Source: Naegleria gruberi (lineage: Eukaryota). Taken from it: 64,000 bases of DNA. Under the pieces are notes generated by a model. It saw only the letters and a list, made by a program, of their open reading frames with translations, made no database searches and was not told where the DNA came from. Of the stretch, positions 4,219 to 23,073 are shown one piece after another. The stretch lies in NCBI GenBank assembly GCA_000004985.1, contig GG738855.1. One strand, written 5' to 3'. The position numbers were made by a program, and so were the translations under genes. Numbering within the stretch: position 1 is the first letter of the stretch; each line of letters begins with the position of its first letter.

Positions 4219-7200
4219 TTACTTCTTTTTGGCTTTCTTTGACTTTCCAGTCTTCTTGGCATTCTTTCTCTTCTTTGATTTAGGTTCCTCTTCCTCTGGT
4301 TCTTCCTCAGAGTATTCTTCAATATCATCATGTTCTTCCTCAGAGCACTCTTCAATATCATCTTCGTCTATTTCTTTCTTTTGAGATTTTTGAGAGAAAA
4401 GAACTGGTGAGCTAGGGGTTGGTGAACGGTCTGTCTTCTTCTTTTTTGAGGTCTTCTTTTTCTTTGGGGAACCCTTCTTATTAGAGAGACCTTGTTTTAA
4501 ATTTCTCAATTCCTCATCAATATTTTCCAATTCACCCTGAATTTCTTCAATTTCGCTCTTGTGTTTTTCAATAGTTTCTTCCTTTTGCTGTTCAGTTTGG
4601 GCATATTCTCCCTTCTCGAAAGCAATTGTTTCTCTGAGTACTTTCTTATACTCTTCAACCTTCTTCTTCTTTTCTAGCAGTAGTTTGACTTCAGGATTTT
4701 CGCTGAGTGGAGTTTGACCAAAACGGAAAACTGGTGGACCTGTAGCCTTAGAACCAGCATATACGATACCAGTTGCTTCAATTCTCTCTCCATCAAGTGT
4801 TAGAATCAATGGGACTGCTAAATTAATTTCCAGTCTCTTTTTTCTGAATGCCAAACCAGTAAGGAATGTTTCAAAAACTAAACTACTACCTAATAAATTC
4901 CAAAATGCATGTCTAATCATTTCTCGTCTAATGTCTATTTCTATCAGATTTACAGAATAGCCAACAAATCCATCTGCGTCAATTGGATCCAATCTCAATC
5001 TACCTTCATTATCCATACCTTTTGAACATTTCTGGATATTATCGAGGGGTAAAACTGGTATCTTGTGAGGGAAATTTTCTAGGAGTCGTCTCACTTTTTC
5101 CATACCATTAGAATCTTGTACAACAATACATTGCATCTTATCTCCCAAGAACCTAGAAATTGTGTCATTGTGCTTTTCATTATCTATATAACCTAGCTCT
5201 CCAAGAATTCCCACAATTCCACTATCTGTTTCCTTTTGGAGTTGTTTTACTTTCTGCAAGGCCTTGTTTTCCGCAAGGCCAACATTGCACTCTTTTTGTT
5301 TTCTACTGTTCTGTGTCTTGATCTCTAACTTCTTTTTAAGAATATTCAATAGTTTGTCAGCATTTTCCATATTTGGCATATCATTTTCGAAGTTCAATTC
5401 ATATTCTTTGATTGTTTTCAGTATATCATTCATTGTGGATCTGAAATTACTAAGCTTGAATTCATTCTCTTGGTGATTTTGCTCGGCTTTCTTAATTTCC
5501 TTCTTCAGATAATCTAGTTCACTGAGACAATTTTGTTTCTTCTCTTGGAGTTCCTTCTCAATTTGTTGAATAGCACTGTTATCAGTAAATCCAAATTCTA
5601 ACTCTTTTGGTGGAAGATTTTTAGTTGTAAAAACTAGCTTATACAAACCAGTTTCACCTGATCCCTCCTTTATGCTAACTCTTGAAAACTTGGCACGACC
5701 ATTCTCAAATTTAGCTACTAAATCCCCTTCTAGCTCAGGAAGTTCACTGTCCATGCTATCTTCTGTTGGTTGAATGGAAAGAGTGACCTTTTTAATTTTA
5801 TCATCGGCAATCACAGTATTGGAATACTTGTCTATCACTTTGAGTGAAAGTTCTTCCCAGAATGATCTTGCATCAATATTTTCTCCCATATTGGTAACTA
5901 CAGGAAGCTGGAATTTATCATTTTCTATTTCCAAAGCTTCCGGATCTCCAGGGGAGACAGCAATATCTAGAGTAGTGTTTATACTCCCATTCAGTCCAAG
6001 AATTGGAACATATGGCAATGAAGAAATGTCCAAAGTAAATCTATATCTGTAAACTCCGGATTTAGTAAATTCTTTTTCACTATTTGCGAATGTATATGTT
6101 AAACTCTTGGAAGCAGATGGGCATGATATGAATTGCCTTTTATCTCCTCCTTGAGGGTTTGCTACTTCCATAATGATTGAATTTGGAGCCTTAACAGGTT
6201 TTCCACTTTCTCCCAAAACTACAACTTCAAAAGGGTCTAAAAAGTCTCCCACCACAAGATTTGTTGTCTTATTGGTAACCTTGAGTTCTGCTGGATGGGA
6301 GCTCTTGATAATATTTACAATAAAGCAAGTCTTGTTTGCCTTTGTTAACTCGTATTCAATCCAGAAAGTATGTCTTCCCTCTGTACCTTTAACCCAAAAT
6401 TGTGGCATATAGGCTCTTCCATTTTCAATTTGTAAATCGATGGACTGATTGACTTCTCCTTGATATTGGATAATTTCAATATCAGTCTCTGGAGGTTCAA
6501 TCTCAAAGTTTCCATGTTGATGTATTACGTTACCAAACTTATCGTGTGTTGTAATGTAAAATGATGGAGTAAGATTATAATTTTCAACATCGAATACTAC
6601 CTCTCCTATCATGTCATTAACTCTCAAAGACACTGGTGGTCCTGGTTCAAGGAGAATATTTTCAATTTTACCCTCTTTGATTTTACCTCCCTTGTCAATA
6701 ATCTTCAAATGGAATTCTCCAGAAGGGCCTATCAAGCTTACATCATTATATTTAAAAAATTTAAAGTGTTCATGGTCATCCAATCCTGTTAGGAGTCGTA
6801 GTTTGTCGAAATCACAAATTTCAATACTTTCTGCTTCACCATTCAATTGAGAAACTATTTCAATTGAAGGTTCAATATTCTCAAGTTCTGGATAATTTTC
6901 ATTACTCTCGTTATCCATCCTATTTCCAAATGCATCCATAATACTGAACTTAACACTGAACTTTTGTTCACATTTAAGTTTTTCAGGTATTGACTTTCTC
7001 TCTATTTTAAATATGCATGGAGGCCCTGTTATGACACGTAAATTAATGGTAAAGTTTGCTATTATCATATCTGTGTCAATATCATCATCGTTCTGTACGG
7101 AATCTCCTGCTGCTTTGGAGAGTATATCGACAAAATATTTAGTAGTTTTAAAAATTTGTGGAACTACTAGAGTTGGTAATTCGCAAATACCTTTTTTAAC

Positions 7201-10200
7201 TTCTAAAAGATTGGCTTTACACCATGAAGCTCTGGCGTATGCATCAATCTCTATCCTTTCGTACATTTCATTGCATAATTCCAAATTCCATCCAACTAGT
7301 TCTGAACTGACTATTGCATTCACTGTTACTTTAAGTGCAGATCTCTCCTTGATCATATTCTTTTCCTCAGTGGTTCTAGTTAGGAGGTTAAATGAAGAAG
7401 GTTTTGCAACTGAAGCTGATTCAATAGTAAGTGGAACATCAATGCAAATATCTTGGTAACTTAGTGTTATATATGCCTCTTTTCGTTGAGAACTACTTTG
7501 AGAGCTTCCTATAGCTATATTTTTGAATTGGAAATAACCAGTTTCAGTATTAAAGGTACCAGAAGCTTCTTCTTTCAAACATTCTCCTTTTACGGTTATG
7601 GTGAGAGGGGTAAAGTCATCTTCACCATCATAAAAACATGGAATGTAGATTTGATTATTTTTCTCATCCAGTAATTTGGCCTCAATATCTGGTAGAATTT
7701 TCTTTACAGAGTTTCCTGACAAGGCAGTAGCTGCATCTTCAGAAAGTTGAATAGTGTGAACGGCTCCAGCAAATATCACCATATCAATTTCAAGAGGTTG
7801 CATAATTAGACCAAATGCTATCACTAATTTTGTTTTTACAAACTTGTTGGAACCTAATGGAGCACTTTTAACAACAAGCTCAGTAATTTCTATTTGATTG
7901 CTATTGTTGAAGGAGGCCTTAAATGAGGATAGTTCTACGGTATCATCAGTTGTTGTAATTTTAAGTTCTTCCGTAATGTTACAAGTTGTCTCTTTGAAAG
8001 GAACAACATTACCATACGTGTCTTGTTGTTCAATGATTAGTGTGGGGAATGGTTTGTCAATAAAGGTTAAAAGGGAATCCTTGAGTTGACTCTTATCTAA
8101 AAGAGATTTGGCACCTTTAACTTTTGGTAAATTGTTGGAAAGTGACAGAGTGGATGGCGCCGCAGCAGTTACATCAATTTTTACCACCTTTGCTTTGATT
8201 CCACTGTCCTCAGAAGAGGATAATTCCAAAATATAAGTACCCACAGATGTAAATTCTGGCTTCAGCTTGTAAGGCTTGAAGCAATGCACTCCTTTTTTAA
8301 AAGCCTTTGTTGAAGTGAGTGACTCATTAAGTTTTTGTTCTTCTTCATTATCACCTTCATAGGTTATGGTCAAAGTAACTGGGTAGAGTTGGTTTGTCAC
8401 AACCTTGTGATCTCCTGTCATTATACAAGCCGACAGGTATTTGAGAGAATATCCAGCTGTAACAGCGTCAGGTGGTGGTCTTCTCTCTCTTGCAGTAACA
8501 TTTGGTGTATCTACAACATCTATATAGCTCGGTAGCTTATTTTTCATTTTGCTGACTTCAGCTTTAAACTCTTGCTTGGTGAGAAGGTTTTGTACTTTTG
8601 ATATTGGAAAGCACTGTCCATTCTTTGAATCATCTGACTCCTTTTCAGGTGACCATTCCTTAACTACAATAGTTACAGAGTATTCTTCTGATGACATGTC
8701 CCTAAACATATCAACAAGAGTTCCAATAATTTTAGGTCTAGTTTTCATGACTAGATAATCTCCAATGGAATAATTTGTTTGTCCGTATTTGATCTTTTTG
8801 TAGAATGTTTTCATACCCTTTCCTTCTTTTTGAGTTCTTTCGAAATCACATTCGTCAAAAATTATTTCTTCATCTAATTTTTTGTGGCATTCCTTAATCC
8901 ATTTTCTATACCTCTGTGTCAAGTTTCTTTCGCTGTAATTTAAAAGTGCTTGACAGAGTGCTGTTTGTTTGCAAAGGTACATTTTGTTGGCCGATACTTC
9001 AAAATTAGAATCAAAAAAGAGCATTCCCTTAATTCTTCTATAGCAATTTTCTGGAATATCCCTATTACTTCTTTCCTTCTCCATAAAAGGTAAATTTTTG
9101 ATTTTTTCATTAGCTAACAGTCTACCATTCCAAAAGCATTCAAATCCAGGATTTCTTTCGCTCAGAGGTACTTCTTGGTCAGTAGGAATATATTTTCCTC
9201 CTTCCAAATATAATTCTTCTGGTATTGGAAGAGTTTCTCTTCCTTGTTTGAAAGGATAGTAATAAATTATTCCTCTCACTGTGCTATTAATTATCGACAC
9301 TCCATATTGGGATGATGTTGGCAGGGTCATTTCAGGCGCGTTCAAATTTTCTCCATTTTTGACACTGAGTTTGATTTCAAAAGTGAACGGTGACTTTCCC
9401 TCCTGAAGATATAATGTTTCCATGTCCTTGTCTTCATTCGATATGGCTGTGCCATCTACTTTCATTATGACATTTTTAGGTTGCTTTAATTGCCATAAAT
9501 CGTCTTCATCAATTGAGGGCATCTTTGTTTTCTTTTGAGACTTGATTGGTGGCATTTCTTCCTCCTCTCCTTCGGAAAGATCATCAATATCACTCATGTT
9601 ATCATTTTCATCAGGATCTTCAATAATATCTCTTCCTTCCTTATTACCATCAGTTCCATGTATATAATAGTGATAGATGTGGCCTAAACGCTTCTTGATA
9701 ATTGCTGGATCATATCTATCGACATAGACCTTCTTAATGTCCGAAATTGTAAAGTGAGTAAAGCTTTCCCATTGTTTTTCTGTATCAGTTGGAGGTCTAG
9801 AAATACAATTGGCTTTCCATTGTTTGTCTTTTCCTGAAGTAAAATCTTGCTCCAACTTTTGCCTTGAAAGGGAAACTTCATAAACAAATCTTGAATCTTT
9901 TGGTTTTGAGACAAGAGTGACTTCATCTCCCAAGTTGAAAATGGCCTTCTTGGAACCTACACCATACCTGGAAAAGTCTGACGTAACAAATTTATCAAAA
10001 AACCTTCTGCGGAGTGGTGCCTTTTCTCTTGTTGGCAACTTGGAATCATCAACTGGGGCTTCAGTAATACCAAGAGTAGCCCAATTGACTAAGGTTTTAA
10101 AATTCATTCCTCTTCCATTATCCCAAATATGGAGCTTGCTTGTAAGTTCATTACTCTGTGTAGGCTTTTCAAATCGAATTTCGATAAGCCTTTCATTCTT

Positions 10201-11127
10201 GTTGAGGACAGTGTTTTGAATAGAATTGTCCAAAATTTCAGCAAGAGCGGTAATGAAGTCATATTCATCTCCTCCGTGAATTAAAATATTTACATGAGGT
10301 ACAATATCTACAGTCAATTGTAAATTAGCCTTAACTTTAGAAGATGATTCAGAAGTATTTTGGCCATTTTTCAATGTCAATATAAAACACCCATGACTCG
10401 AAGTGGGTGGTAAGTTTCTTGTCGAATGAGCACTTTGATTAATGTCGTCTAATATGATAACTTCGTTGGTGTTTGCCTTAGATTTTCCAATTTGAGATGC
10501 ATCTAAATCGGCATCCTTTACATCCTTATCATCCAAATTTCTAATAGATTCAATTTCATTCACAGATTTTAATTTAAAAATCTCACAAATGTAATGTTTC
10601 AATTGATTCACACTTGAAATTTTAGATTTAGGCCCAACAAGTTTTGTTTTTCCAGTGTGGGCATCCACAATCTTGTACATTGTTGGATCTGAATTTTCTT
10701 CGATTTTTGCAGTTGTCTCATCGTTTAATTTGGTTTTTTTTCTTGATGGTTCTATTTCTTTCTTAATTTTAGTTTCTGTCACTGTTGGTGGTTGACTTGC
10801 AAGTTTTGTTGGTTGTGATGATGATTTTGTTGTTTCTTCCGATTCCGATATTTCTTCATATTCGTCAATAATATTACTATCATCTTGGTCTTCCAAATAT
10901 TTACTACTGTTATTGGAGGTACTCTTGTAACCATTTTCCTCATCGTTCTCTGAGGAGGTTCTCTTTTTAGATTTCTTTGCCGTTGTTGATGAAGAATTTT
11001 TGCTGTTCGTCTTTTTGCTTGATGACTTTGGAGGCATTTTATTCTTGTGTTTGTTGGAATACCAACGAGAAATATTTTGGCGCCAAATCTTTAAAGATAA
11101 AAATACAGATCTCGTAACTAATGCCAT
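4219..11127 (-). CDS. SMCHD1-like giant protein: N-terminal GHKL/Bergerat ATPase and C-terminal SMC hinge; Lys/Ser-rich N-terminus and acidic insert
   Basis: EILDNSIQN...IEIRFEK...WDNGRGMN are GHKL N-box and G1-box motifs. The C-terminus has GILGELGYIDNEKHNDTISRFLGDKMQCIVVQDSNGMEKVRRLL, an SMC-hinge-like segment. The ORF is uninterrupted for 6.9 kb. The biological start is probably the second ATG at 11037 (MPPKSSSKK), because an E2F-like palindrome sits at 11075-11087. Confidence 0.75.
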   Translation of the reverse strand: MALVTRSVFLSLKIWRQNISRWYSNKHKNKMPPKSSSKKTNSKNSSSTTAKKSKKRTSSENDEENGYKSTSNNSSKYLEDQDDSNIIDEYEEISESEETTKSSSQPTKLASQPPTVTETKIKKEIEPSRKKTKLNDETTAKIEENSDPTMYKIVDAHTGKTKLVGPKSKISSVNQLKHYICEIFKLKSVNEIESIRNLDDKDVKDADLDASQIGKSKANTNEVIILDDINQSAHSTRNLPPTSSHGCFILTLKNGQNTSESSSKVKANLQLTVDIVPHVNILIHGGDEYDFITALAEILDNSIQNTVLNKNERLIEIRFEKPTQSNELTSKLHIWDNGRGMNFKTLVNWATLGITEAPVDDSKLPTREKAPLRRRFFDKFVTSDFSRYGVGSKKAIFNLGDEVTLVSKPKDSRFVYEVSLSRQKLEQDFTSGKDKQWKANCISRPPTDTEKQWESFTHFTISDIKKVYVDRYDPAIIKKRLGHIYHYYIHGTDGNKEGRDIIEDPDENDNMSDIDDLSEGEEEEMPPIKSQKKTKMPSIDEDDLWQLKQPKNVIMKVDGTAISNEDKDMETLYLQEGKSPFTFEIKLSVKNGENLNAPEMTLPTSSQYGVSIINSTVRGIIYYYPFKQGRETLPIPEELYLEGGKYIPTDQEVPLSERNPGFECFWNGRLLANEKIKNLPFMEKERSNRDIPENCYRRIKGMLFFDSNFEVSANKMYLCKQTALCQALLNYSERNLTQRYRKWIKECHKKLDEEIIFDECDFERTQKEGKGMKTFYKKIKYGQTNYSIGDYLVMKTRPKIIGTLVDMFRDMSSEEYSVTIVVKEWSPEKESDDSKNGQCFPISKVQNLLTKQEFKAEVSKMKNKLPSYIDVVDTPNVTARERRPPPDAVTAGYSLKYLSACIMTGDHKVVTNQLYPVTLTITYEGDNEEEQKLNESLTSTKAFKKGVHCFKPYKLKPEFTSVGTYILELSSSEDSGIKAKVVKIDVTAAAPSTLSLSNNLPKVKGAKSLLDKSQLKDSLLTFIDKPFPTLIIEQQDTYGNVVPFKETTCNITEELKITTTDDTVELSSFKASFNNSNQIEITELVVKSAPLGSNKFVKTKLVIAFGLIMQPLEIDMVIFAGAVHTIQLSEDAATALSGNSVKKILPDIEAKLLDEKNNQIYIPCFYDGEDDFTPLTITVKGECLKEEASGTFNTETGYFQFKNIAIGSSQSSSQRKEAYITLSYQDICIDVPLTIESASVAKPSSFNLLTRTTEEKNMIKERSALKVTVNAIVSSELVGWNLELCNEMYERIEIDAYARASWCKANLLEVKKGICELPTLVVPQIFKTTKYFVDILSKAAGDSVQNDDDIDTDMIIANFTINLRVITGPPCIFKIERKSIPEKLKCEQKFSVKFSIMDAFGNRMDNESNENYPELENIEPSIEIVSQLNGEAESIEICDFDKLRLLTGLDDHEHFKFFKYNDVSLIGPSGEFHLKIIDKGGKIKEGKIENILLEPGPPVSLRVNDMIGEVVFDVENYNLTPSFYITTHDKFGNVIHQHGNFEIEPPETDIEIIQYQGEVNQSIDLQIENGRAYMPQFWVKGTEGRHTFWIEYELTKANKTCFIVNIIKSSHPAELKVTNKTTNLVVGDFLDPFEVVVLGESGKPVKAPNSIIMEVANPQGGDKRQFISCPSASKSLTYTFANSEKEFTKSGVYRYRFTLDISSLPYVPILGLNGSINTTLDIAVSPGDPEALEIENDKFQLPVVTNMGENIDARSFWEELSLKVIDKYSNTVIADDKIKKVTLSIQPTEDSMDSELPELEGDLVAKFENGRAKFSRVSIKEGSGETGLYKLVFTTKNLPPKELEFGFTDNSAIQQIEKELQEKKQNCLSELDYLKKEIKKAEQNHQENEFKLSNFRSTMNDILKTIKEYELNFENDMPNMENADKLLNILKKKLEIKTQNSRKQKECNVGLAENKALQKVKQLQKETDSGIVGILGELGYIDNEKHNDTISRFLGDKMQCIVVQDSNGMEKVRRLLENFPHKIPVLPLDNIQKCSKGMDNEGRLRLDPIDADGFVGYSVNLIEIDIRREMIRHAFWNLLGSSLVFETFLTGLAFRKKRLEINLAVPLILTLDGERIEATGIVYAGSKATGPPVFRFGQTPLSENPEVKLLLEKKKKVEEYKKVLRETIAFEKGEYAQTEQQKEETIEKHKSEIEEIQGELENIDEELRNLKQGLSNKKGSPKKKKTSKKKKTDRSPTPSSPVLFSQKSQKKEIDEDDIEECSEEEHDDIEEYSEEEPEEEEPKSKKRKNAKKTGKSKKAKKK
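11075..11087. promoter_or_regulatory. E2F-type palindrome TTTTGGCGCCAAA upstream of the probable SMCHD1-like start (ATG 11037)
   Basis: Same 12-mer core as at 3319. It lies within the first 30 codons of the maximal ORF but 38 bp upstream of the second ATG. Confidence 0.4.
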
Positions 11128-11142
11128 GTTATTGGAAACACC

Positions 11143-11928
11143 TTATTCATGTCTTGGTGGTTTTTCCACCACTTTGATTTTTGTAATTTGAATATGATCT
11201 TCCAATGGATAAATATTTTCACATTTGGTTCTAATTTCTGCACCCATTCCACATTTGATTGCCATTTGCTCAACAAATTCCAGAATGTTCATCTTACTAA
11301 TATGTTTGGTTAATACTTGAGCCATGACAGTCCTAATCTTATGAATTTGCGACTTACTGGCATAGGATGTCTTTTTCAATTGCAATTCTGTCATTCTCGT
11401 GCTCACAATCATGGCTATTCTAATCTTGTAACCATCCAAACTCTTAAATTCCTGATTAAGAGTTATGGTTGAGCGACCTTTTCCTATCAATGATGCCAAT
11501 TTATCTTGACTCAATCTAAAACCATTAAACTCTGTTTCTGCATGTTTTCGAAGAGCAACATTATTGATCTTCAATTTTACAATATTATGATTCAATTCTT
11601 CCTTCAAAGATGGAATAATATCAGGAGCTGAAACTTCCACTGTTCGATCAAGAATTTTTTCAAACGTTGGAGTTTGATCCACTTTTTTCTTCACTTTTTT
11701 CTTCAATTTTTTCTGCAAGGCGATAGTGTGTTCTGATTTTGTAATGGGTGTCATTAAAGGAGGATAATCTCCCTCAGTATTGGTGACAGTAGCATATTCA
11801 TTGGTATCTGATTTTTCATAGCTCAGGTATGGTGATTCTATTAGAAAGAATTCTTTTCTATCTTGAAAATATTTTGGCAGACGGTACCTTCTTGGTAACA
11901 TACGTTTGTTCCTTCCGAGTCCTCCCAT
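11143..11928 (-). CDS. hypothetical basic protein (MGGLGRNKRMLPRRYR...)
   Basis: The ORF-track start at 11991 is GTG; the first ATG is at 11928. Basic N-terminus. No confident family assignment. Confidence 0.4.
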   Translation of the reverse strand: MGGLGRNKRMLPRRYRLPKYFQDRKEFFLIESPYLSYEKSDTNEYATVTNTEGDYPPLMTPITKSEHTIALQKKLKKKVKKKVDQTPTFEKILDRTVEVSAPDIIPSLKEELNHNIVKLKINNVALRKHAETEFNGFRLSQDKLASLIGKGRSTITLNQEFKSLDGYKIRIAMIVSTRMTELQLKKTSYASKSQIHKIRTVMAQVLTKHISKMNILEFVEQMAIKCGMGAEIRTKCENIYPLEDHIQITKIKVVEKPPRHE

Positions 11929-12154
11929 TTTTTTGCATGAAATTGAAATATTTATTGAAAATGGATTGATGGCTATTGTTAGTAATTTCACAATTCTGAG
12001 ATTGAAATTCCAAAAAATCTACAAGATTTATTACAAAAAAATGAAATTATAACAATTTTAGCAGGTGATGTGAATAATATGTAATTATTAGTTAATTGTT
12101 TAAATTATTTAATTTTTAAATAATTGGGATTTTTGAATTTTTATTTAAAAAAAA

Positions 12155-13399: not shown

Positions 13400-13599
13400 T
13401 TACTGGTTCAATTCAATTATTAAGATTTACCTTAATAATCAGGAGGAGTTGGTATATTTTAATTGTTCTAATCAAGTTTCGATATGATTACTTTGGATAG
13501 AATGATAAATTTCAAAATGTAATATTTCCATTCCTGGTAAATAATCAAGTCGATTATAACAGCCAAGCAACAGATAAATAACATTTCCAAATCAAAAAA

Positions 13600-14697: not shown

Positions 14698-14713
14698 TTT
14701 AATAAAGGTAGGA

Positions 14714-16501
14714 TTACAGTTCAAAGGTGGTAATTAAAGGTTTGTGGTGTTGGGATTCGGTGCTAGTATTTGTTTCCAACAATTGGAAGTCCAATGTTTT
14801 AACACAAGGGGAAATGAAGACATAGTCGAGGGTAGAAGATTCTTTGGTTTCTTGATCAACAAAGGTTGGTTCAAAGGCAACATTATGATACCATGTTCCT
14901 GAATATGATTCAGATTCACTGGATTCATCTTCATCATTATCTTCATCGTGATGATCTTCAGAGGAGGCAGTCGATTGGCGAGAGTCTGTCTTTTCAAAGA
15001 CCATCAAGGAAGCAGATAATTGTTTTTGACATGGAATAATTAAGCTTTCTCTATCGTATGGTGTTGGGAAATCATCAGAGTCAGAGTCACTATCAATAGG
15101 TTTAGTTTGGTCATCATTATTGTGAGCACCAAGGTCAGTTCCAGTAACCAGAATACTCAGAGCATTTGATTTTGGTAAACTGTTAAAATTACCAACAGTA
15201 ATGGTTGGTGTAATTGTTGTCTTGTTTGTAATTGAATTGTAATTTGACATTTTACCAACAATTTCTTGTCTCATAGAATGAGCAGCATATCTTCTAGCTT
15301 CCACTCCTTGATCCCAATGAGTGTTAAAAACAATAAAGTCCTTGTACTCTTCCTCTGCCTCCTCATCATATGGTTTAAAAACAAAGGCTGCCCAATTACA
15401 GAAACGAGGCACAAGTGAGTCCCAGGATTTAGTACCTGCTTCCTTGTGGTTCTTACTAAACCAATAGACGCCACAATCTACACACTTCAATCTTTCGGAA
15501 TTATAAATTATTGGCAAGTATTCAGTGACAAAGTCATCAGGATCCCTATCTTCGGTTTCTCTATTTCTGACTTCATTCTGTAAAAATCTTGTTATTATAC
15601 TGGTGGTGGAGGTAGATTGAATCATTGGTGTATCTTCGTCTCTTTCCTCACTACTTTCTATAGTTTCGTCAAGTTTACTTGGTTCATAACTATTCTTGTG
15701 TCCACAACAGAACCATTTATAAACTGGTGGCTCATTATCCTCGCTGTCAGTCATGGTTTCTTCATGCTTCATTTCCAAGTGTTCTTCAGCCTTTTTCAAG
15801 CATTTCAATGATTTAATTAATTGTCCATAATTGACATCTTGCAACAAGATTAAATCAGGTGCTTGTTCACCAATCTGTTGAATGGTTGACTTGTTATTAT
15901 CATCATCTTCATCAATGTTTTCTCCTTCAACACTTGATGCACTCCATGAAGCAACAGTAAGCTTTTTCTTTGATGTCTTCCTACTACTCGTTGCCTTTTC
16001 GAATTGTTCATCAAATTGTGCATCAATCAATGATGAAGACATGTGATGATGATGTGAAGAATGTGATTTTTCTAAAATTTCCAACTTGACTTCATGACGT
16101 TCATCCACAACAATAACATTATTAATTGGTGATGATGCTGGAGAAAAGTCTTGCTCATCAACCCATCTCGATGTCACGGCAGACCTTCTTGTATAGAGGG
16201 AGGTATCTGCATTACCTGATGATAATATTGGAATACTATTGGAGGATGAGGAAATAGCAACATTGTTGAGGAGAGAATTTGTTTGTTGTTGTGGTTGTTG
16301 ATCATCAACATTCCGAATAAGATTAAAATTCATCATATTACCGTTATTTTCCAATGGAGAATCGTGTTGTTGCTCCAAAATTGATGATGAGTGAGCTGAA
16401 TCGGTACTGCTCAAACTAGTTGTGCTCTGTGATAAATTCGACTTGTCCTTGCTTGCCTTTCTGCGGTTCTTTTTATTCTTACTGTTCCTCTTTCTGGCCA
16501 T
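14714..16501 (-). CDS. endonuclease/exonuclease/phosphatase (EEP) family protein with a long Ser/Asn-rich N-terminal region
   Basis: The C-terminal half has FIVFNTHWDQG, TVGNFNS and LDYVFIS, resembling EEP motifs (NTHLD, GDFN, DYIF). ATG at 16501. Confidence 0.5.
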   Translation of the reverse strand: MARKRNSKNKKNRRKASKDKSNLSQSTTSLSSTDSAHSSSILEQQHDSPLENNGNMMNFNLIRNVDDQQPQQQTNSLLNNVAISSSSNSIPILSSGNADTSLYTRRSAVTSRWVDEQDFSPASSPINNVIVVDERHEVKLEILEKSHSSHHHHMSSSLIDAQFDEQFEKATSSRKTSKKKLTVASWSASSVEGENIDEDDDNNKSTIQQIGEQAPDLILLQDVNYGQLIKSLKCLKKAEEHLEMKHEETMTDSEDNEPPVYKWFCCGHKNSYEPSKLDETIESSEERDEDTPMIQSTSTTSIITRFLQNEVRNRETEDRDPDDFVTEYLPIIYNSERLKCVDCGVYWFSKNHKEAGTKSWDSLVPRFCNWAAFVFKPYDEEAEEEYKDFIVFNTHWDQGVEARRYAAHSMRQEIVGKMSNYNSITNKTTITPTITVGNFNSLPKSNALSILVTGTDLGAHNNDDQTKPIDSDSDSDDFPTPYDRESLIIPCQKQLSASLMVFEKTDSRQSTASSEDHHDEDNDEDESSESESYSGTWYHNVAFEPTFVDQETKESSTLDYVFISPCVKTLDFQLLETNTSTESQHHKPLITTFEL

Positions 16502-16708
16502 TTTTTTAATTGTTGTCTTATCTGCATAGAGAATTTAATAATTGATGTGATGATGGGCGAATCATTATTACCGGTTGAGTTGTTATTCAGCCGAGAGTAG
16601 ATAGCATGTAAATAATATCTTTGTAAATATTGTAACAATATAGTGGTATTGGTGTGAAGGATTAAAAACAAATTTCATGGTTAATTTTGTTGCAACAAAC
16701 AATTCTTG

Positions 16709-16719
16709 TTCCCGCCAAG
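16709..16719. promoter_or_regulatory. E2F-like site TTCCCGCCAAG 36 bp upstream of the BRCT-gene ATG (16755)
   Basis: Matches the TTTSSCGC consensus in 7 of 8 positions, followed by CAA as in the palindromic sites. Confidence 0.3.
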
Positions 16720-16754
16720 TTTTGGTGGCCATTTCCAAAAAATTCTAGAAAAAA

Positions 16755-19700
16755 ATGTCTACAAACCCATCACGTAGATCAAACTTTCATTCTAGAGGCT
16801 CCATCTCGAGCAGCAGCCCAACACTAGATGAATTTACTATCGGTAGGTGTTATCAACACTAGTTGATGGGCTAATATCATATTATTCTTATGTAATATTT
16901 TCAACATTTATTATGTGGAACAAATATTTGTGTGGATTAATAATAACAATAATAGAAAATTATAAAAGAAAGATCAAGGAGCAAGAATCGGAAATAAGTG
17001 ATCTCCAAAAGGAACTCCATAATTTTCGTATGAAGGAAAGTGATTTTATGTTTAATTCTTTGTTGATGAAGTTTTCATCAGAAAAGAAGAGGAAGAGAGA
17101 TGAGTTCGATGAAGATTCTTGCAATGACACCAGTCAAAGTGTAGCAAAAGCCGAGCAACAAAACACCCACCAAAGCACTCATCTTGCAAATGGAAAACCA
17201 CAAATCACTTTGGAAGAACACGAAAAAAAGATTTCCGAATATACTGCTCAAGTAGAAAACCTAGAGAAGGAAAATTCCGATTGGAAAACCCAAATAACCT
17301 CCTTGAAGGAATTACATGGAAAATTAGAACATCAATTCAATCAGCTTACAGAACAATTAGAAAAGTCTCTCACTGAAAACAAAAGAATTACTGAGGTTTG
17401 TGCTCAAAACGAACAAGCTGTCAAGAAGGCAGAAAGTGAAATCGAATCTTTAAGAAATGAGTTGAAACAAAAAGAAAATATCCTAAACCAATCTAATCAA
17501 GAGTTGGAAACCAGAAAGAATGAGTTGGAAAATGTGAAGAAAGAGTTAGATAGTGTAAAGAGCGAGATGGAATCACAAATCAAACAATTGACCACTCAGC
17601 TCGAACAAAATCGACAACCTGTAACTCAAATTGCTAACAATGACGAGAAGGAAAAGGAGCTCACTCAACAAGTTAAGAATCTTGAGGAAGTTAATTCTAA
17701 ACTTCAACAAGAAATTGTCAGTCTCAACAAGGAAAAGGCCTCATTGGAGCAATTAAATGTTACTCTCAACAGTGATTTGATTAATTCACATGAACAAGAA
17801 AAGGAAAGAGCCAAGAAGGTCAATGAGCTGGAATCGACATTGTCCCTACTTGATGATGACAAGAAGAGACTCGAACTTCTCATCAAGGAAAATGAAACAC
17901 TCTCCGAGGAACGTGTTCGTACTGCTTTGAATGAATCCGAGAGTAAGGATGCTCGTATCACAGAGTTGGAACAACAAAAACAAGATCTCACTACTCATGT
18001 GGAAGAGTTAAAGACTAAAATCAGTGATATTACCAATAACCAATCCAATTATGATCAACAACTTGTGTCTGAAATTGAAAATCAAAAACAATTAATCACA
18101 CAAAAAACACAAGAATTGGAAGAGAGAAATGCTAAAATTGTGGAATTGGATAGCCATGTCCAAAAATTACAACAAGACCTCTCTAATGAAAAGGAACAAA
18201 GCACTAAGAGTATGAATGAAATCACATCACAAATTGAAGCACTCAAATCAGAATTATCTGCAGCCACTGAGAGTCATGCTATAGTTTTGAATGAAAAGAC
18301 CACACTCCAGAATGATATTCAAATTCTTGAAAATGATAAGAATCAATTAAGTATCCAACTTAAAGAAATTCAAGGACACCACGAAAGCCTTCAAGCTTCT
18401 ATTTTGGAAAATGAAAAACAAAAACAAGGTTTGCAAACATCTCTATCAGAATACGAAATCAAAATCGCTCAAAACTCTGAACAAATTAACTTGTTACAGG
18501 CACAAATCGAAAGTCTCAAACAAGTTGAAACACAACTCCAAAACTTGAAATCTGAAAATGAACAATTACAACAACAAGCCACCTCTTATACCGAGTTATT
18601 AAAGAAGAGAGAGGGCGAACTTACCAATCAACAAGAAAAAGAACAACAATTGTTACACCAAAAGGAAGAGGAGATTAAAAGTATTCAAACCAAATATCAA
18701 GAAAGTATCAAAAAGAGAGATGTCAAATTGAATAACATGGAAAGCGAAATCCAAGAATTGAAGAAAGCCTTGGAATCTGCCACCTCTGAAAAGAATCTTC
18801 TTAATACAACTATTGAACAACAAAAGAAGACATTTGAAGACAAACTTGACGATATTAATACACGACACCAAGAAGAAAAGAAGAATCAAGAAAAGCTAGC
18901 AGCATCTCTTACAGAAACATTGAACGAAAAGAATACTTTGGTGGAAAAACTCAAGAGTGAAAAGAATGCCCTAGTTGAAGAAAGATCTCAATTGAAAGCT
19001 AAAGAGGAACTTTTACAAACAACCATTGAACGCTATCGTGCCGAAACAGAGGTGGAATCCAATAATAATAAGAAGAAGGGTGTTAAGCGTGATTCTCAAG
19101 ATGATACTGCACCAACATCTTCCTCAACAATGGACCCTCCAAAGAAGAAGGTAAAGAATGACACACCTGCTAAGAAAGAATTCAAAGTTATATTTTCTGG
19201 TTTTAATGACAAGATTGCCAAGTATACTAATGCTTTCAAGAAGACTTTGGAGGATTATGTTAAGGAATTAGGAGGAGTTATTGTTGACGATGTAGATATG
19301 GGAGCAACACATGTTGTAGCACCACCTGGTGTCAGAAGTAAGTACTATTGATTACCTAAATTATTAACAAGTGTCAGCAATCAAGGTTCTCCAGGCAGCA
19401 GTTGCACACATTTGGATCATGAATCCTGAATGGCTTGAGGAATGTAAGAAACATTCCAAGCTTGTTGGTATGTTGTTGTAAACATTTAAATTCTAATTTT
19501 TCCAAGACGAATCTTCTTTTGGTAAACTGAGAGAGGAAGAATTATTTAAGGGAAAGAATGTCGGTTTTACTGACGCATTTAAAAAGGAATGTGATAATTC
19601 AAAGTATAAGGCTCAAAAAAGAATGACCAATGCCAAAACTCTTGTGGAAGGAGGGTCAGGAGCTGTTACTGAAATGGAAGAAGCTGAATTGATTTTAGTG

Positions 19701-19769
19701 TCTGCTGAGGAAAGTCTTTCTGCAAACGGTAAAACAAAGAGAGTTTTTACTTGGGAAGGATTCCTTGAT
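16755..19769 (+). CDS. long coiled-coil protein with a C-terminal BRCT domain; 4 exons (16755..16842, 16956..19337, 19372..19467, 19507..19769)
   Basis: ATG at 16755, then GTAGGT donor at 16843 and acceptor aataatag at 16955. About 790 aa of heptad-rich E/K/Q/L sequence. BRCT-like end ...GATHVVAPPGVR|MSAIKVLQAAVAHIWIMNPEWLEECKK is split by GTAAGT (19338) and GTATGT (19468) introns. TGA at 19767-19769. Confidence 0.55.
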
Positions 19770-19928
19770 TACATTTTCCCAAAGAATTAATATTTTTCTA
19801 GCTTGTAAATAAATAATTTATTTTGATTCCTCCTTAATAATTTCACATCACAAAAAGTACTTGGGTATCCTTATCAACAATACTTGTTTTTTTAATGGTT
19901 TGTTGATGAAAATATTCAAACTGTTGGC

Positions 19929-22289
19929 TTAAAGGAAGAATGGGTTATTACGAAGTTTTGTTGATGGGTATTCTTGTGTCAAGTCAACTGATTCAATTGA
20001 TTTTTTGGCGTAGAGTAAACATGCTGGCATTCTTACAGAACCATTCCAATTATAGTAGAGATGTGTTTGTCTGAAAGTAATTTTGATAATCTCATCAACT
20101 GAGAACATGGTATTGTTGAACAAAACTTGGTATCTGACTGGTTTGCTGTATCCAATATTACTATTAATAAAGCACGAGTTCATGTAAAATTCTTGAGTTT
20201 GGTATCTTGACATACTGGTAACAACAGTACCAATTGGTGGATTCTGATTATCCATATTAAATCTGGCATTAGAGTCCTTGTTTACACTAACCAGGCAAAC
20301 TTTGGTATATTCCATTTCAGCTTCAAGACAAAAGTCATGAATAAGTTGAGAAATATCAATACAATCATGTCCACTATTGTACAAAATCAAAGCACTAGGC
20401 ATTCCTCCACTGTTTCTATTACGAAAAGCTTGCAAGGCCTCCTTAATACTTGACAATAACTTGTTACGAATGTTTGTTTCATCACTCTCTCTGAAGGGAA
20501 CTGTATAATACAGAGTAGTACTAGTATTTAGTGAGAGTGAAATGGAGCCTTTAAAGTTTCTTCCCTTTCTCTGAATATCAATACCACAAACTGATACAAA
20601 CTCTTGATAGGATCTTTCGACAGACCAAATAAGACCACCAATCTTGGCTGACATTTGTATCAAACAATTAGGAAGTCTCTTAAACCAATCTCCATTACAA
20701 ACAATACATTGTGAAGGAATACCAACAGTACAATTGTAAAACTGTTTCAATGCACTGTAAATATGCTTATTTTCATTAGCCATGAGGAAAAAGACATAGT
20801 CCAGGTCATTCCAATTTTTGTAACCTTCAATATCATGCATAAAATCTCTACCACGATCATCCAAATCAAATACAAGAGGCTTTCCCAAATCGTACCTTCT
20901 AATGGCATCCATAAATCCTTTAACAAGGAATTGTGGTGATACAAGCGCCCAATTTTTTCCTTGCAAACTGTTAATGACAGTATCCATAGAAACAGTCCAT
21001 TTGTCATTTTTCATGCCTTCAATTCCAGAGACTTGTGGTTGTGGAACAACAGTAAAGCTAGTTTCAAGTGCTCTGTCGATTTGCAATCCAACCGAATCAA
21101 GGAATTGTCTTGACTCTCCACTATTCATTTTGTTAGAAATTCTGGTTATGTAGTCTTCCTTTTGTGTAACTGATTTCTTTGGAATTTTCCTCAAATCCTT
21201 CTTGTTAATACCAGAAATGTAACAAAGTTCTGGAATCAGATAGTTAACTTGTTTTTTCTGATTTCTCATCTTGACCATAACACAAATCAAAGGCTGATTC
21301 TTATCTCTAACATTGATATTGTATCTTTCCTTATAGTATTCAAAGTAAGGAACATCTTTTCCATCTTTTTTAAAGGTCGATGAAGGTGTTTGGTTGAAAT
21401 CAATATCCTTAATGACAAATGATCTATTATTGTAGACGATACTGAGACCCTTATATCTTTCTGCTATGGATAAATAGTTATCTCTTTGCATATCATTCTT
21501 CAAATCTTCAATCATGGAATATCTGCTAGTGATCTTTTGTTTGAATGTTAAGGAGAGACACAAACCACTTCCAAGGAAGGCTAAAGCAGGAATAACACCA
21601 TCTCTCACAGAGTATCTATCAACGATAGCGCCTTCTTTTTCAACTTCAGCAAATCCCAATCTATCCATCTTTAAGTATTTAAAAACCTTGGTCAGACAAA
21701 ATGAAATAGCCTGTTCTAATCTAGTATCTTGAATATTATTGTTAATGGAAACTTCAGTCTTTCCTTCAATTTTCACTAAGAATGGAATCTTGACACCATT
21801 CTTTTCGTATGGCATAACAATTTCTAAGGATGGAACCTTCTCAACAGAAACAATTAATGAGCCATCAAACATTGGCAATCCAGGAATTTGTGAGGTCCAA
21901 TTATAAGTCTTTTTTATCATGAAAAACAACTTGAATTTGAATGGAACTATATTCAACATGGATTCAGCCCATCTCTTACTTTCTTCTGGAATTTCAGCCC
22001 ATTCGGTTGTTTTGGATGCACAAGTCACAGAAAATGATGATAATTCGAAAATTCTATTCGGAAGCATTCTGATTGGAAAGAAGTTTGTTTTAATTCTATC
22101 GGATGATGTTCTTTGCCCTCCGTGGCCTCCTTGATAGCCTCCTCCACGACCACCAAAGCCTCCATGTCCTCCTTGATAACCTCCTCCACGGTGGTGACCA
22201 CCACCCTGGTGATGTGATGGTCTTCCAGAGTTGTCCTCCTTGAAACGTTTGTTATAGTCTTGATTTCCTTCGAAGCCTCTCTTGCTCAT
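19929..22289 (-). CDS. Argonaute/Piwi family protein with an RGG/GGY-rich N-terminus
   Basis: N-terminus GGGHHRGGGYQGGHGGFGGRGGGYQGG. PAZ-like segment VPYFEYYKERYNINVRDKNQPLICV. Piwi C-terminus VRMPACLLYAKKSIE resembles IPAPVYYA..A.R. The track start at 22337 is TTG; first ATG is at 22289. Confidence 0.85.
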   Translation of the reverse strand: MSKRGFEGNQDYNKRFKEDNSGRPSHHQGGGHHRGGGYQGGHGGFGGRGGGYQGGHGGQRTSSDRIKTNFFPIRMLPNRIFELSSFSVTCASKTTEWAEIPEESKRWAESMLNIVPFKFKLFFMIKKTYNWTSQIPGLPMFDGSLIVSVEKVPSLEIVMPYEKNGVKIPFLVKIEGKTEVSINNNIQDTRLEQAISFCLTKVFKYLKMDRLGFAEVEKEGAIVDRYSVRDGVIPALAFLGSGLCLSLTFKQKITSRYSMIEDLKNDMQRDNYLSIAERYKGLSIVYNNRSFVIKDIDFNQTPSSTFKKDGKDVPYFEYYKERYNINVRDKNQPLICVMVKMRNQKKQVNYLIPELCYISGINKKDLRKIPKKSVTQKEDYITRISNKMNSGESRQFLDSVGLQIDRALETSFTVVPQPQVSGIEGMKNDKWTVSMDTVINSLQGKNWALVSPQFLVKGFMDAIRRYDLGKPLVFDLDDRGRDFMHDIEGYKNWNDLDYVFFLMANENKHIYSALKQFYNCTVGIPSQCIVCNGDWFKRLPNCLIQMSAKIGGLIWSVERSYQEFVSVCGIDIQRKGRNFKGSISLSLNTSTTLYYTVPFRESDETNIRNKLLSSIKEALQAFRNRNSGGMPSALILYNSGHDCIDISQLIHDFCLEAEMEYTKVCLVSVNKDSNARFNMDNQNPPIGTVVTSMSRYQTQEFYMNSCFINSNIGYSKPVRYQVLFNNTMFSVDEIIKITFRQTHLYYNWNGSVRMPACLLYAKKSIESVDLTQEYPSTKLRNNPFFL

Positions 22290-22920: not shown

Positions 22921-23073
22921 TTACGAACATTTTGACATACTATCATTAAAGGAAACGCGCATTGCTGTGCAAAAGAAAAAAGGTAATCTCCCCCTGGTGG
23001 GCTCGAACCACCGACCTGCAGATTAACAGTCTGACGCTCTACCGACTGAGCTAAGGGGGATTACGAACATTTT
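22921..23073. repeat. 13-bp direct repeats TTACGAACATTTT (22921-22933 and 23061-23073) bracketing the tRNA-Asn unit
   Basis: Exact 13/13 match. On the tRNA strand the upstream copy abuts the tRNA 5' end. The unit comprises tRNA + terminator + 55 bp. Confidence 0.5.
22989..23060 (-). tRNA. tRNA-Asn (anticodon GTT)
   Basis: The reverse complement is TCCCCCTTAGCTCAGTCGGTAGAGCGTCAGACTGTTAATCTGCAGGTCGGTGGTTCGAGCCCACCAGGGGGA. It has a 7-bp acceptor stem, A box TAGCTCAGTCGG, B box GGTTCGAGCC, anticodon loop CTGTTAA, and no encoded CCA. A T7 terminator on the minus strand lies 7 nt downstream (22975..22981). Confidence 0.85.

Follow-up and report, generated by a model that had tools for sequence, protein, structure and literature searches.

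An SMCHD1 orthologue and a putatively slicer-dead PIWI-clade Argonaute as probable chance neighbors in Naegleria gruberi

A gene for an SMCHD1-type ATPase and an Argonaute gene lie 8.8 kb apart on the minus strand of the window analyzed here, a stretch of 64,000 nucleotides, raising the question of whether the two act together in small-RNA-directed silencing or share a locus by chance. A sequence-only reading of this DNA had flagged a candidate chromatin-level small-RNA silencing module in an amoebozoan. However, the source is Naegleria gruberi, a member of the Heterolobosea within the Discoba, as indicated by 100% matches to N. gruberi database proteins and by the taxonomy record. As to the remark that an SMCHD1-type ATPase is not a standard annotation in amoebozoa, dictyostelid amoebozoans do carry the same family. 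SMCHD1-type proteins of ~2,000 aa are found in diplonemids as well as in dictyostelids, where UniProt automatically names the family members 'SMCHD1 ribosomal S5 domain-containing protein'. The gene ends had likewise been confused in that reading, which measured from a 3' end at 4219 to an Argonaute start at 19929: the pair is encoded on the minus strand, so that the SMCHD1 gene has its 5' end at 11127 (11037 in the database model) and 19929 is the 3' end of the Argonaute gene.

The SMCHD1-type gene extends over 4219..11127 (-) as one unbroken ORF of 2302 codons, the length reported previously, and its domains are given below with coordinates on the same strand. By BLASTP the ORF is 100% identical to an NCBI model of 2272 aa, 'predicted protein [Naegleria gruberi]' (P0001), whose start corresponds to M31 of the ORF at nucleotide 11037. 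The N-terminal tail (aa 31-150, 10678..11037), delimited by composition, is of low complexity, rich in Ser, Lys and Glu and contains KKSKKR-type basic patches; it is presumably disordered and might possibly include a nuclear localization signal. The sole piece of it that was modeled by AF2, aa 140-147, has a low pLDDT. The tail is followed by a UBL-like beta-grasp domain (aa ~151-228, 10444..10677), which was assigned from the AF2 model, Foldseek and profile searches and sits where SMCHD1 has its ubiquitin-like domain. Residues 12-89 of the model show a beta-beta-alpha-beta...beta pattern with a pLDDT of ~68-81, the Foldseek alignment to 6MW7 covers 663 columns, and the alignment of a protist-only profile starts at residue 34 of 6mw7. 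A GHKL (Bergerat-fold) ATPase domain (aa ~272-506, 9610..10314), identified by Pfam and PDB matches and by alignment, contains the catalytic E297 (nucleotides 10237-10239), the Mg-binding N301, the G1 box D336-NGRGM and the G2 box YGVGSKK (G389). The adjoining SMCHD1-type ribosomal-S5-fold transducer (aa 567-750, 8878..9429) matches the full Pfam profile PF22899 (1-168/168, 6.1e-45) and holds the family-wide motif FECFWNGRL in the alignment.

The central ~1,050 residues (aa ~800-1848, 5584..8730) consist nearly entirely of beta strands in the AF2 model and appear to form about ten Ig-like beta-sandwich domains, some of which carry a DxxGN motif. Foldseek matches of this region are arrays of Ig domains (NUP210, hydin-type proteins, DSCAM and alpha2-macroglobulin), and the Pfam family Ig_SMCHD1_8th is precomputed on P0001-P0004. 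Both the UBL-like and the Ig-array assignments are based on AF2 models from shallow alignments of 15-17 sequences, with mean pLDDT values of 68 and 81, respectively. A coiled coil of inferred extent (aa ~1851-1960, 5248..5577; AF2 and sequence), in which model residues 1052-1090 (aa 1851-1889) form a long helix, precedes the SMC hinge domain (aa ~1964-2134, 4726..5238), which was assigned by Pfam and PDB matches and by alignment. The hinge has R2115 (nucleotides 4783-4785) as the equivalent of mouse R1867 and a Gly motif ATG...YAG. The protein ends with a second coiled coil and a tail in which Lys-rich and acidic stretches alternate (aa ~2140-2302, 4219..4710). A 33-bp tandem duplication is present at 4299-4362 within the C-terminal tail region.

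Database and structure matches agree that the protein is a full-length SMCHD1 orthologue, with the catalytic Glu/Asn pair and the G1 and G2 boxes intact as judged by alignment. Apart from the transducer family SMCHD1_S5, Pfam returned significant matches to HATPase_c_3 (5.4e-10, aa 289-424) and SMC_hinge (1.7e-08, aa 1969-2092). In phmmer searches of the PDB the human SMCHD1 ATPase module 6mw7 was matched at 6.4e-36, and the protist-only profile raised this to 2.8e-74; the AF2 model of aa 140-800 had 6MW7 as its best Foldseek match (1.2e-29), followed by Hsp90 and MORC at ~1e-10. For the hinge, the single-sequence search placed the protein equally close to bacterial SMC hinges (T. maritima, 1.5e-08) and to the mammalian SMCHD1 hinge, while the protist-only profile ranked the mouse SMCHD1 hinge 6n64 (8.1e-16) above the DMS3 hinge (2e-14) and bacterial SMC hinges. 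The motifs EILDNS and DNGRGM, on which the sequence-only reading had based its assignment, align with human SMCHD1, and the architecture it proposed is present as a complete domain set by Pfam, PDB and AF2 evidence.

Vertebrate SMCHD1, compared through the structures 6MW7 (human ATPase module) and 6N64 (mouse hinge), shows the same order over ~2,000 aa: UBL, GHKL, S5 transducer, Ig-like array, coiled coil, hinge and coiled coil, the Ig-like region corresponding to the vertebrate 'linker'. Between Naegleria and vertebrates the catalytic Glu/Asn, the G1 and G2 boxes and FECFWNGRL have been retained; E297 is the counterpart of human E147, which is replaced by Ala in the 6mw7 crystal construct E147A (PMC7458401). 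The hinge Arg is also shared, as are the first and third dimerization Gly positions, whereas the second is Ala in Naegleria (PMC7458401, PMC4628070). The similarity is limited: BLASTP aligns roughly one quarter of the length at only ~26% identity, and long Ser/Lys/Glu-rich tails are present at both ends of the Naegleria protein. Members of the family form hinge-mediated homodimers, undergo ATP-dependent dimerization of the GHKL domain and directly bridge and compact DNA (PMC4628070, PMC7458401, bioRxiv 10.1101/2025.07.08.663435). By homology, two Naegleria chains would be permanently joined through the C-terminal hinge, their UBL-GHKL-transducer modules would dimerize upon ATP binding and hydrolyze ATP slowly, and nucleic-acid binding by the hinge and the basic tails would allow the dimer to bridge and compact chromatin. 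The sequence itself shows that the domains are present, together with their catalytic and contact residues; the steps of this scheme are inferred. The vertebrate SMCHD1 recruiters (LRIF1/HP1, Xist pathway) are not known to occur in Naegleria.

The Argonaute gene (19929..22289, (-), a single exon encoding 786 aa) is identical to XP_002680133.1, 'argonaute [Naegleria gruberi]'. Its N-terminus is, as had been noted, of the RGG type: a low-complexity tail of 40 residues (aa 21-60, 22110..22229 (-)) consists of 50% Gly, 15% His, 10% Arg, 10% Gln and 5% Tyr and contains the RGG motif twice (R34 and R48). Such tails are not a hallmark of PIWI proteins, as they also occur in Trypanosoma brucei AGO1 and plant AGO1/AGO2. 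The gene is intact, not truncated, with a PAZ domain (aa ~260-368, 21186..21512 (-); Pfam PAZ 3e-21), which matches the PAZ structures of PIWIL1/PIWIL2 at 3e-15 to 9e-13, and a MID pocket with PIWI domain (aa ~499-764, 19998..20795 (-); Pfam Piwi 8.2e-35). The residues of the guide 5'-phosphate pocket, Y511/K515/Q527/Q545/K549, are invariant in the PIWI alignment, and the C-terminal motif is FFL here and xFL/xYL in the other proteins, with an invariant last Leu. PDB matches of the PIWI clade range from 2e-45 to 1e-27, with Drosophila Piwi at 2e-45, while those of the AGO clade reach 3e-11 (human AGO1) or weaker. By these sequence comparisons the protein is a PIWI-clade Argonaute.

In both HMMER pairwise and MAFFT alignments the columns of the canonical DEDH tetrad are occupied by D571 (20577-20579), N606 (20472-20474), S639 (20373-20375) and K762 (20004-20006), giving D-N-S-K. 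S639 lies opposite the canonical second Asp (YNSG vs YRDG) and K762 opposite the canonical His (LYAKK vs QYAHK). Of the three catalytic candidates proposed earlier, the Asp of GIDIQ (D571) stands, but neither D642 nor H743 is the homologue of a catalytic residue. The second position (N606) is uncertain, because there is a gap in the alignment at the glutamate-finger loop and a Glu, E604, is found two residues before the aligned position, whereas Ser at the third and Lys at the fourth position are unambiguous in the two independent alignments. The same columns read D/E/D/H in animal PIWIs, E/V/S/K in N. lovaniensis and N. fowleri, and D/Q/S/K in the metagenomic protein P0026; Ser and Lys are thus common to three other sources besides N. 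gruberi. Slicing by Siwi requires His874, and Drosophila Piwi, whose tetrad is DVDK, has no slicer activity (PMC7015924). The N. gruberi protein is accordingly predicted not to slice, and from its tetrad it is therefore predicted to be a recruiting platform and not a target cutter.

It is highly improbable that slicing is nevertheless accomplished by E604, D642 and H743 in a non-canonical arrangement. E604 is two residues off the aligned glutamate-finger position in a flexible loop (PMC7015924) and D642 is three residues past S639, but both alignments set S639 at the YRDG Asp and K762 at the catalytic His. Moreover, H743 belongs to the CH/THLYYNW motif, where animal PIWIs have a His in addition to a separate catalytic His, the fourth-position His is essential in Siwi while a Lys there accompanies the loss of slicing in Drosophila Piwi (PMC7015924), and the first Asp is replaced by Glu in N. 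lovaniensis and N. fowleri. Even less credible is a decaying, non-functional gene copy. Although the loss of catalytic residues, the variable genomic position and the low identity to other Naegleria homologues (41-46%) could point in this direction, the 786-codon ORF is unbroken, PAZ and Piwi score well over the Pfam thresholds, and the 5'-phosphate pocket and the C-terminal motif are conserved across PIWIs. The recurrence of Ser and Lys in four sources including N. gruberi argues for long-term retention under constraint, and an identity of 44% falls inside the 29% to 65% range of syntenic neighbors between the same species.

The best solved-structure match of the Argonaute is the slicer-inactive, nuclear Drosophila Piwi (6KR6, 2.1e-45), with which it shares the PIWI clade, a tetrad that has Lys in fourth place and a residue other than Glu in second, and an intact guide-binding pocket (PMC7015924). 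Unlike Drosophila Piwi, which keeps both catalytic Asp residues, the Naegleria protein is without the second; the records of the Naegleria Argonautes do not list PF23278, the N-domain family of animal Piwi, and Naegleria is unicellular and has no germline. Protist homologues retrieved include PIWI-clade Argonautes of ciliates (Tetrahymena Twi9p etc., 3.4e-36, 25-27% identity); the Twi9p tetrad is likewise degenerate (E/.../Q/E in the aligned columns). Ciliate Twi proteins function in programmed DNA elimination, a process that is not known from Naegleria. As its 5'-phosphate pocket is intact, the N. gruberi protein should load a small guide RNA by means of PAZ, MID and PIWI, and it may then serve as an RNA-guided platform that recruits other factors in the manner of Drosophila Piwi.

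If the two proteins formed a functional module, the slicer-dead PIWI protein would find nascent repeat transcripts by means of small RNAs and recruit SMCHD1 to compact the locus, and their proximity would reflect co-regulation. A PIWI protein without slicer residues must silence through recruitment, the genes lie on the same strand within 8.8 kb of each other, and C. elegans MORC-1 is a GHKL-type protein acting downstream of small RNAs. Drosophila Piwi silences co-transcriptionally by recruitment (PMC7015924), and the plant SMC-hinge protein DMS3 and the GHKL ATPase MORC6 act downstream of siRNAs, so that hinge/GHKL chemistry can serve small-RNA-directed silencing (PMC5651269). Yet not two genes, as had been counted, but five ORFs >280 aa in mixed orientations separate the pair: an S3Ae-like ORF (11143-11991, (-)), two conserved unknowns (12155-13399 and 13600-14697, both (+)), an EEP-family gene (14714-16501, (-); PDB 3g6s, 1.6e-09) and ORF 16847-19351, part of a coiled-coil/BRCT gene for which the earlier intron-bearing model is plausible (~16755-19769, (+)). 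No match obtained places any of the five (11143..19769) in a silencing pathway. Counterparts of four were found by tblastn in other Naegleria genomes, where the S3Ae-like ORF had no counterpart adjoining SMCHD1. N. lovaniensis (L001) and another Naegleria assembly (L002) both retain the two conserved unknowns and the EEP and BRCT genes beside SMCHD1, L002 together with an actin-family gene, but no Argonaute lies within 10 kb in either, nor near SMCHD1 in Willaertia (L003). The Argonaute homologue of N. lovaniensis is on a different contig, adjoining a ZNFX1-type helicase, and that of N. fowleri is in a third, unrelated context. The adjacency is therefore lineage-specific and was probably produced when this region rearranged locally on the N. 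gruberi branch. In compact eukaryotic genomes of this kind, gene order is rarely a guide to pathway membership. Since the module has adjacency in one species in its favor and nothing further, we regard it as very unlikely, and comparative synteny supports the earlier suspicion that the proximity was probably a coincidence.

A main role of the SMCHD1 orthologue in DNA repair or recombination instead of heritable silencing is less far-fetched, but still unlikely. The earlier comparison to plant RdDM (GMI1/DMS11-like) merged three distinct proteins: GMI1, with GHKL plus hinge, is implicated in somatic homologous recombination and not in RdDM, DMS11 is AtMORC6, which has GHKL but lacks a hinge, and DMS3 is the RdDM hinge protein without an ATPase (PMC5651269). 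The design of GMI1, set beside the Naegleria protein by description, is the same fusion, in contrast to RdDM, where hinge and ATPase are on two polypeptides, and GMI1 is the only characterized non-animal protein of this kind (PMC5651269). In all three Naegleria assemblies a BRCT-domain gene also stays no more than a few kb from SMCHD1, a weak argument given that the whole neighborhood is syntenic. On the other hand, the Naegleria protein has the full vertebrate architecture including UBL, Ig array and Ig_SMCHD1 Pfam families, vertebrate SMCHD1 is a repressor, and the two roles are not mutually exclusive.

Taken together, the locus quite probably contains two independent and intact N. gruberi genes, an SMCHD1 orthologue and a putatively slicer-dead PIWI, that are functionally unlinked and neighbors by chance. 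Both proteins are ordinary, uncharacterized members of known families, and chance accounts for their pairing better than a linked silencing module would. The missing conserved synteny may still be compatible with a cooperation of SMCHD1 and PIWI in trans.

The region is gene-dense, has a GC content of ~35% and carries long open reading frames (ORFs) that mostly lack introns. The SMCHD1-like ORF (4219..11127, minus strand, 2302 codons) is 100% identical to an NCBI entry named 'predicted protein [Naegleria gruberi]' (P0001, 2272 aa), the first residue of which is Met31 of the ORF. Because the database model begins at M31, the 2302-aa sequence gave no match in an exact look-up, and the correspondence was resolved by a homology search. 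Naegleria is a heterolobosean and belongs to Discoba; therefore, the 'amoebozoa' of an earlier sequence-only reading was wrong.

A phmmer search against PDB sequences matched the protein to the human SMCHD1 ATPase module (6MW7; E = 6.4e-36). The SMCHD1 architecture proposed from the sequence alone was borne out by the HMM searches, in which all three core domains were matched: a GHKL (Bergerat) ATPase (HATPase_c_3, 5.4e-10), followed by the SMCHD1-specific transducer of ribosomal S5 fold (SMCHD1_S5, PF22899, 6.1e-45 across the whole profile; aligned with 6MW7 residues 403-558), and a C-terminal SMC hinge flanked by short coiled coils (SMC_hinge, 1.7e-08; 1.5e-08 against 1gxj). In the phmmer alignment, E297 of ALAE-ILDNS lies opposite human E147, the mutation of which abolishes ATPase activity (PMC7458401). 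Together with N301, it forms the N box (catalytic Glu and Mg-binding Asn), and both residues align with human and vertebrate SMCHD1. The G1 box (DxGxG), DNGRGM, is identical in the Naegleria and human proteins, and YGVGSKK of the G2 box matches human FGVGGKQ. An alignment of 13 sequences showed that the ATPase motifs and the transducer motif FECFWNGRL are conserved from Naegleria to vertebrates.

When vertebrate SMCHD1 was part of the search profile, 6MW7 and the mouse hinge structure 6N64 were matched trivially; this profile was discarded because of its circularity, and the search was repeated with protist sequences only. The protist-only profile matched 6MW7 at 2.8e-74 over chain residues 34-558, so that the ubiquitin-like domain (UBL) is included, and 6N64 at 8.1e-16; plant DMS3 (2e-14) and the Thermotoga SMC hinge (2.9e-14) followed closely behind. 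Within the hinge, R2115 is the equivalent of mouse R1867. At the three Gly positions that were mutated in mouse SMCHD1 to break dimerisation (PMC7458401, PMC4628070), the Naegleria hinge has Gly at the first and third and Ala at the second. The part of the SMCHD1-like gene that encodes the acidic C-terminal tail contains a 33-bp tandem duplication (window 4299-4362; 1.9 copies, 93% match) encoding DDIEECSEEEH/DDIEEYSEEEP.

Structure models were obtained for two segments of the protein before the hinge. The AlphaFold2 model of aa 140-800 (661 aa, pTM 0.66) starts with a beta-grasp unit at aa ~151-228 (pLDDT ~68-81), and the assignment of an N-terminal ubiquitin-like domain before the ATPase is, on this model, moderately secure. 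Foldseek returned 6MW7 as the best match (1.2e-29, ~660 columns, covering the whole model), followed by Hsp90 and MORC ATPases at ~1e-10. The model of aa 800-1890 (pLDDT 81) consists nearly entirely of beta strands and ends in a long helix (aa 1851-1889) that precedes the hinge. Its Foldseek matches were arrays of Ig-like domains, e.g., in NUP210, hydin-type proteins, DSCAM and alpha2-macroglobulin. In agreement with this Ig array, precomputed Pfam annotations place Ig_SMCHD1_8th on the Naegleria proteins, with matches to PF26199 and, in Willaertia, also to PF26198. The Ig region is thus present, with no more than one or two of the eight vertebrate families (Ig_SMCHD1_1st to 8th) being detected by sequence. 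Taken together, every defining feature that can be read at the sequence level identifies the large protein as a full-length SMCHD1 orthologue, and the N. gruberi gene, so far labelled only 'predicted protein', can be named accordingly.

The mode of action of the orthologue is most likely that of mammalian SMCHD1, by analogy with the hinge homodimer, the ATPase and the chromatin compaction and silencing, which are known only for the mammalian protein (PMC4628070, PMC7458401, bioRxiv 10.1101/2025.07.08.663435). Naegleria SMCHD1 would form a constitutive dimer through the hinge, its GHKL heads would undergo ATP-gated dimerisation with slow hydrolysis, and nucleic-acid binding would lead to bridging and compaction of chromatin. 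The outcome may be silencing or repair; the plant relative GMI1 has been linked to repair (PMC5651269). The comparison to 'GMI1/DMS11-like' RNA-directed DNA methylation (RdDM) in the sequence-only reading conflated three proteins, as DMS11 is MORC6, which has no hinge, whereas the RdDM hinge protein is DMS3, which has no ATPase (PMC5651269).

Close full-length relatives were found in N. lovaniensis, a further Naegleria assembly and Willaertia magna, with identities of 64%, 62% and 44%, respectively. When the ATPase-transducer module served as the query of an exhaustive phmmer search, 330 cluster representatives were retrieved at E<=1e-3, of which 45 also passed E<=1e-30; many have a length of ~2,000 aa. 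This search and the accompanying cluster look-ups revealed members in dictyostelids (Polysphondylium, Cavenderia, Heterostelium, Dictyostelium citrinum and Synstelium) and diplonemids (Rhynchopus and Artemidia), while a second, word-indexed homology search with the protist profile added only one vertebrate SMCHD1 and no new taxa. Several of these proteins carry automatic UniProt names, either 'SMCHD1 ribosomal S5 domain-containing protein' or 'SMC hinge domain-containing protein'. In our literature searches, SMCHD1 was never mentioned together with Naegleria, and together with Dictyostelium in a single listed paper, which deals with an unrelated subject. The SMCHD1 architecture of these protists has been picked up by automatic annotation, yet it is not taken up in the literature that was searched.

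Our results show that the whole ~2,000-aa architecture is common to Discoba, Amoebozoa and animals. This sharing points to an origin that predates the split of these groups and is far older than X-inactivation or imprinting; horizontal transfer may account for the distribution instead. If the origin is indeed ancient, the ancestral job of SMCHD1 can be argued to have been something general, such as compaction of repeats or heterochromatin, or repair.

The Argonaute ORF (19929..22289, minus strand) is exactly XP_002680133.1, 'argonaute [Naegleria gruberi]', from the same 613,270-bp scaffold. The possibility that this gene is unannotated or a pseudogene was rejected on the basis of this exact match and the intact ORF. 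The domain check proposed earlier returned significant Pfam matches to PAZ (3e-21) and Piwi (8.2e-35). Among proteins of solved structure, those of the PIWI clade matched best (Drosophila Piwi 2.1e-45, PIWIL1 4.6e-39, Siwi 1.4e-27), compared with 3.4e-11 for human AGO1 and weaker values for other AGO-clade structures. With its PAZ, MID and PIWI domains and a similarity to PIWI that exceeds that to AGO, the protein is assigned to the PIWI clade. In the PIWI alignment (A1), the residues of the 5'-phosphate pocket, Y511, K515, Q527, Q545 and K549 (Y-K-Q-Q-K), are invariant across animal, ciliate and Naegleria proteins. The C-terminal motif is FFL in the window protein and xFL or xYL in the others, and the last Leu is invariant.

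The catalytic tetrad departs from the DEDH or DEDD required of a slicer. Its columns, which the MAFFT alignment showed as clearly as the HMMER pairwise alignments did, read D571/N606/S639/K762. The first canonical Asp is retained as D571 in GIDIQ. The position of the Glu finger is occupied by N606, with a Glu (E604) two residues earlier across a gap, the second Asp is replaced by S639 (YNSG vs YRDG) and the His by K762 (LYAKK vs QYAHK). The catalytic candidates named in the sequence-only reading thus held for the Asp of GIDIQ and failed for the other two: the Asp of YNSGHD is D642, three residues off, and the His of FRQTHLYY is that of the (C/T)HLYYNW motif, a position where several animal PIWIs with a separate catalytic His have a His as well. 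Ser and Lys at the third and fourth positions are shared by homologues from three other sources, with tetrads of E/V/S/K in N. lovaniensis and N. fowleri and D/Q/S/K in a metagenomic relative (P0026).

Slicing by Siwi requires the His at the fourth position, and Drosophila Piwi, which carries DVDK, does not slice and serves as an RNA-guided binding platform (PMC7015924). By these two precedents, the window Argonaute is predicted to be a non-slicing, guide-binding effector. In at least three species, the slicer residues have been lost from the PIWI-type Argonaute of Naegleria, whereas the guide pocket has been kept. Drosophila Piwi thus has a parallel in a protist, which offers a lead to those who wish to establish RNAi in Naegleria.

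The N-terminal tail of the Argonaute (aa 21-60) consists of 50% Gly and contains two RGG motifs and one GRG. The PIWIs of the animal piRNA pathway are marked by N-terminal Arg-Gly/Arg-Ala repeats, which undergo symmetrical dimethylation and are recognised by Tudor proteins, and by 2'-O-methylated guides made independently of Dicer. RGG-type tails are also found on AGO-clade proteins of trypanosomes and plants, and the tail therefore does not argue for a Tudor pathway of the animal type. In N. fowleri, an AGO-clade Argonaute (NfTy_031470) exists in addition to the PIWI-type protein (PMC13315211).

Five ORFs of >280 aa, rather than the two genes counted earlier, separate the SMCHD1 gene from the Argonaute gene: an S3Ae-like ORF (11143-11991, minus strand), two unknown ORFs (12155-13399 and 13600-14697), an EEP-family gene (14714-16501) and a coiled-coil/BRCT gene. 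The EEP call was backed by a PDB sequence search, while no local Pfam match was obtained at E<0.1. Other Naegleria genomes contain counterparts of four of these five ORFs; none was found for the S3Ae-like ORF beside SMCHD1 in N. lovaniensis or in the second Naegleria assembly. This divergent Ribosomal_S3Ae-family ORF matches Pfam at 6.1e-31 (108 bits) over profile positions 38-191 only; its end and the first ATG of the SMCHD1-like ORF are 16 bp apart. It looks like a diverged RPS3A paralogue rather than a housekeeping ribosomal protein.

We compared the SMCHD1 loci of N. lovaniensis (L001), the second Naegleria assembly (L002) and Willaertia (L003), each with 10-kb flanks. L001 and L002 keep the two unknown ORFs and the EEP gene as upstream neighbours of SMCHD1. 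The BRCT gene is also kept in both, but on the opposite side of SMCHD1, and an actin-family gene (window 26292-27560) is present in L002 at 93% identity. This arrangement is consistent with an inversion: compared with the other Naegleria assemblies, the N. gruberi block formed by SMCHD1, the two unknown ORFs and the EEP gene appears flipped with respect to the BRCT and actin-family genes. The segment 19929-26129, comprising the Argonaute, tRNA-Asn, DUF4116 and RCC1 genes, has no counterpart in L002 and appears at this site only in N. gruberi.

Several further features lie in this part of the window and beyond. The tRNA-Asn(GTT) gene (22988-23060, minus strand) is located ~700 bp upstream of the Argonaute start; directly after it comes a perfect 22-bp tandem repeat (23065-23113, 2.2 copies). 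The plus-strand ORFs 23270-24505, 24609-26129 and 31080-34019 encode a protein with six DUF4116 repeats (3.3e-53) and two proteins with RCC1 repeats, one of which is fused to EGF-like domains. A small protein with an MJ1316 'RNA cyclic group end recognition' domain (2.8e-07) is encoded at 35111-35737 (plus strand), and two plus-strand ORFs, 41706-44342 (878 aa) and 45173-48382 (1069 aa), had no Pfam match at E<=0.001.

No Argonaute was found by tblastn within 10 kb of SMCHD1 in L001, L002 or L003, and the adjacency of the two genes is hence not conserved. The closest N. lovaniensis Argonaute (44% identity) lies on another contig, directly upstream of a ZNFX1-type helicase, and the N. fowleri Argonaute is surrounded by kinase, LRR and ApoL genes. 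Three contexts in three species indicate that the SMCHD1-Argonaute adjacency is specific to N. gruberi. ZNFX1-type helicases partner with small-RNA pathways in other eukaryotes. The N. lovaniensis helicase (1906 aa; PYSW02000030.1, L004 12799-18570; ZNFX1, AAA_11, AAA_12 and ZnF_RZ domains) starts ~190 bp downstream of the PIWI-type Argonaute; at the same locus, a DDE transposase gene is located 4.4 kb upstream. A conserved partnership of the two was nevertheless rejected, as the helicase is absent beside the N. fowleri Argonaute (L005), and no ZNFX1-like sequence was found in the window. This adjacency is also species-specific, showing that suggestive neighbours arise easily by chance.

The synteny agrees with the earlier remark that the proximity is 'probably coincidental' and speaks against the candidate silencing module raised alongside it, since the adjacency is not conserved and the Argonaute homologues sit elsewhere. 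We conclude that the two genes are independent, uncharacterised members of known families that lie near each other by chance, and positional grounds do not warrant pursuing the pair as a module. The two proteins could still act together in trans, with the slicer-dead PIWI of this free-living excavate guiding co-transcriptional silencing and the SMCHD1 orthologue compacting its targets, but we consider such a pathway very improbable. If it existed, an axis leading from small RNAs to GHKL/SMC-hinge chromatin proteins would be ancestral to eukaryotes and not invented in each lineage. Plant RdDM has this axis in a split form, with DMS3 acting with MORC6, and C. elegans MORC-1 is a further instance of a link from small RNAs to GHKL chromatin proteins. 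With the two genes taken as chance neighbours, the main value of our findings lies in how deeply the complete SMCHD1 architecture is conserved and in a PIWI protein, predicted to be slicer-dead, that is conserved in Naegleria.
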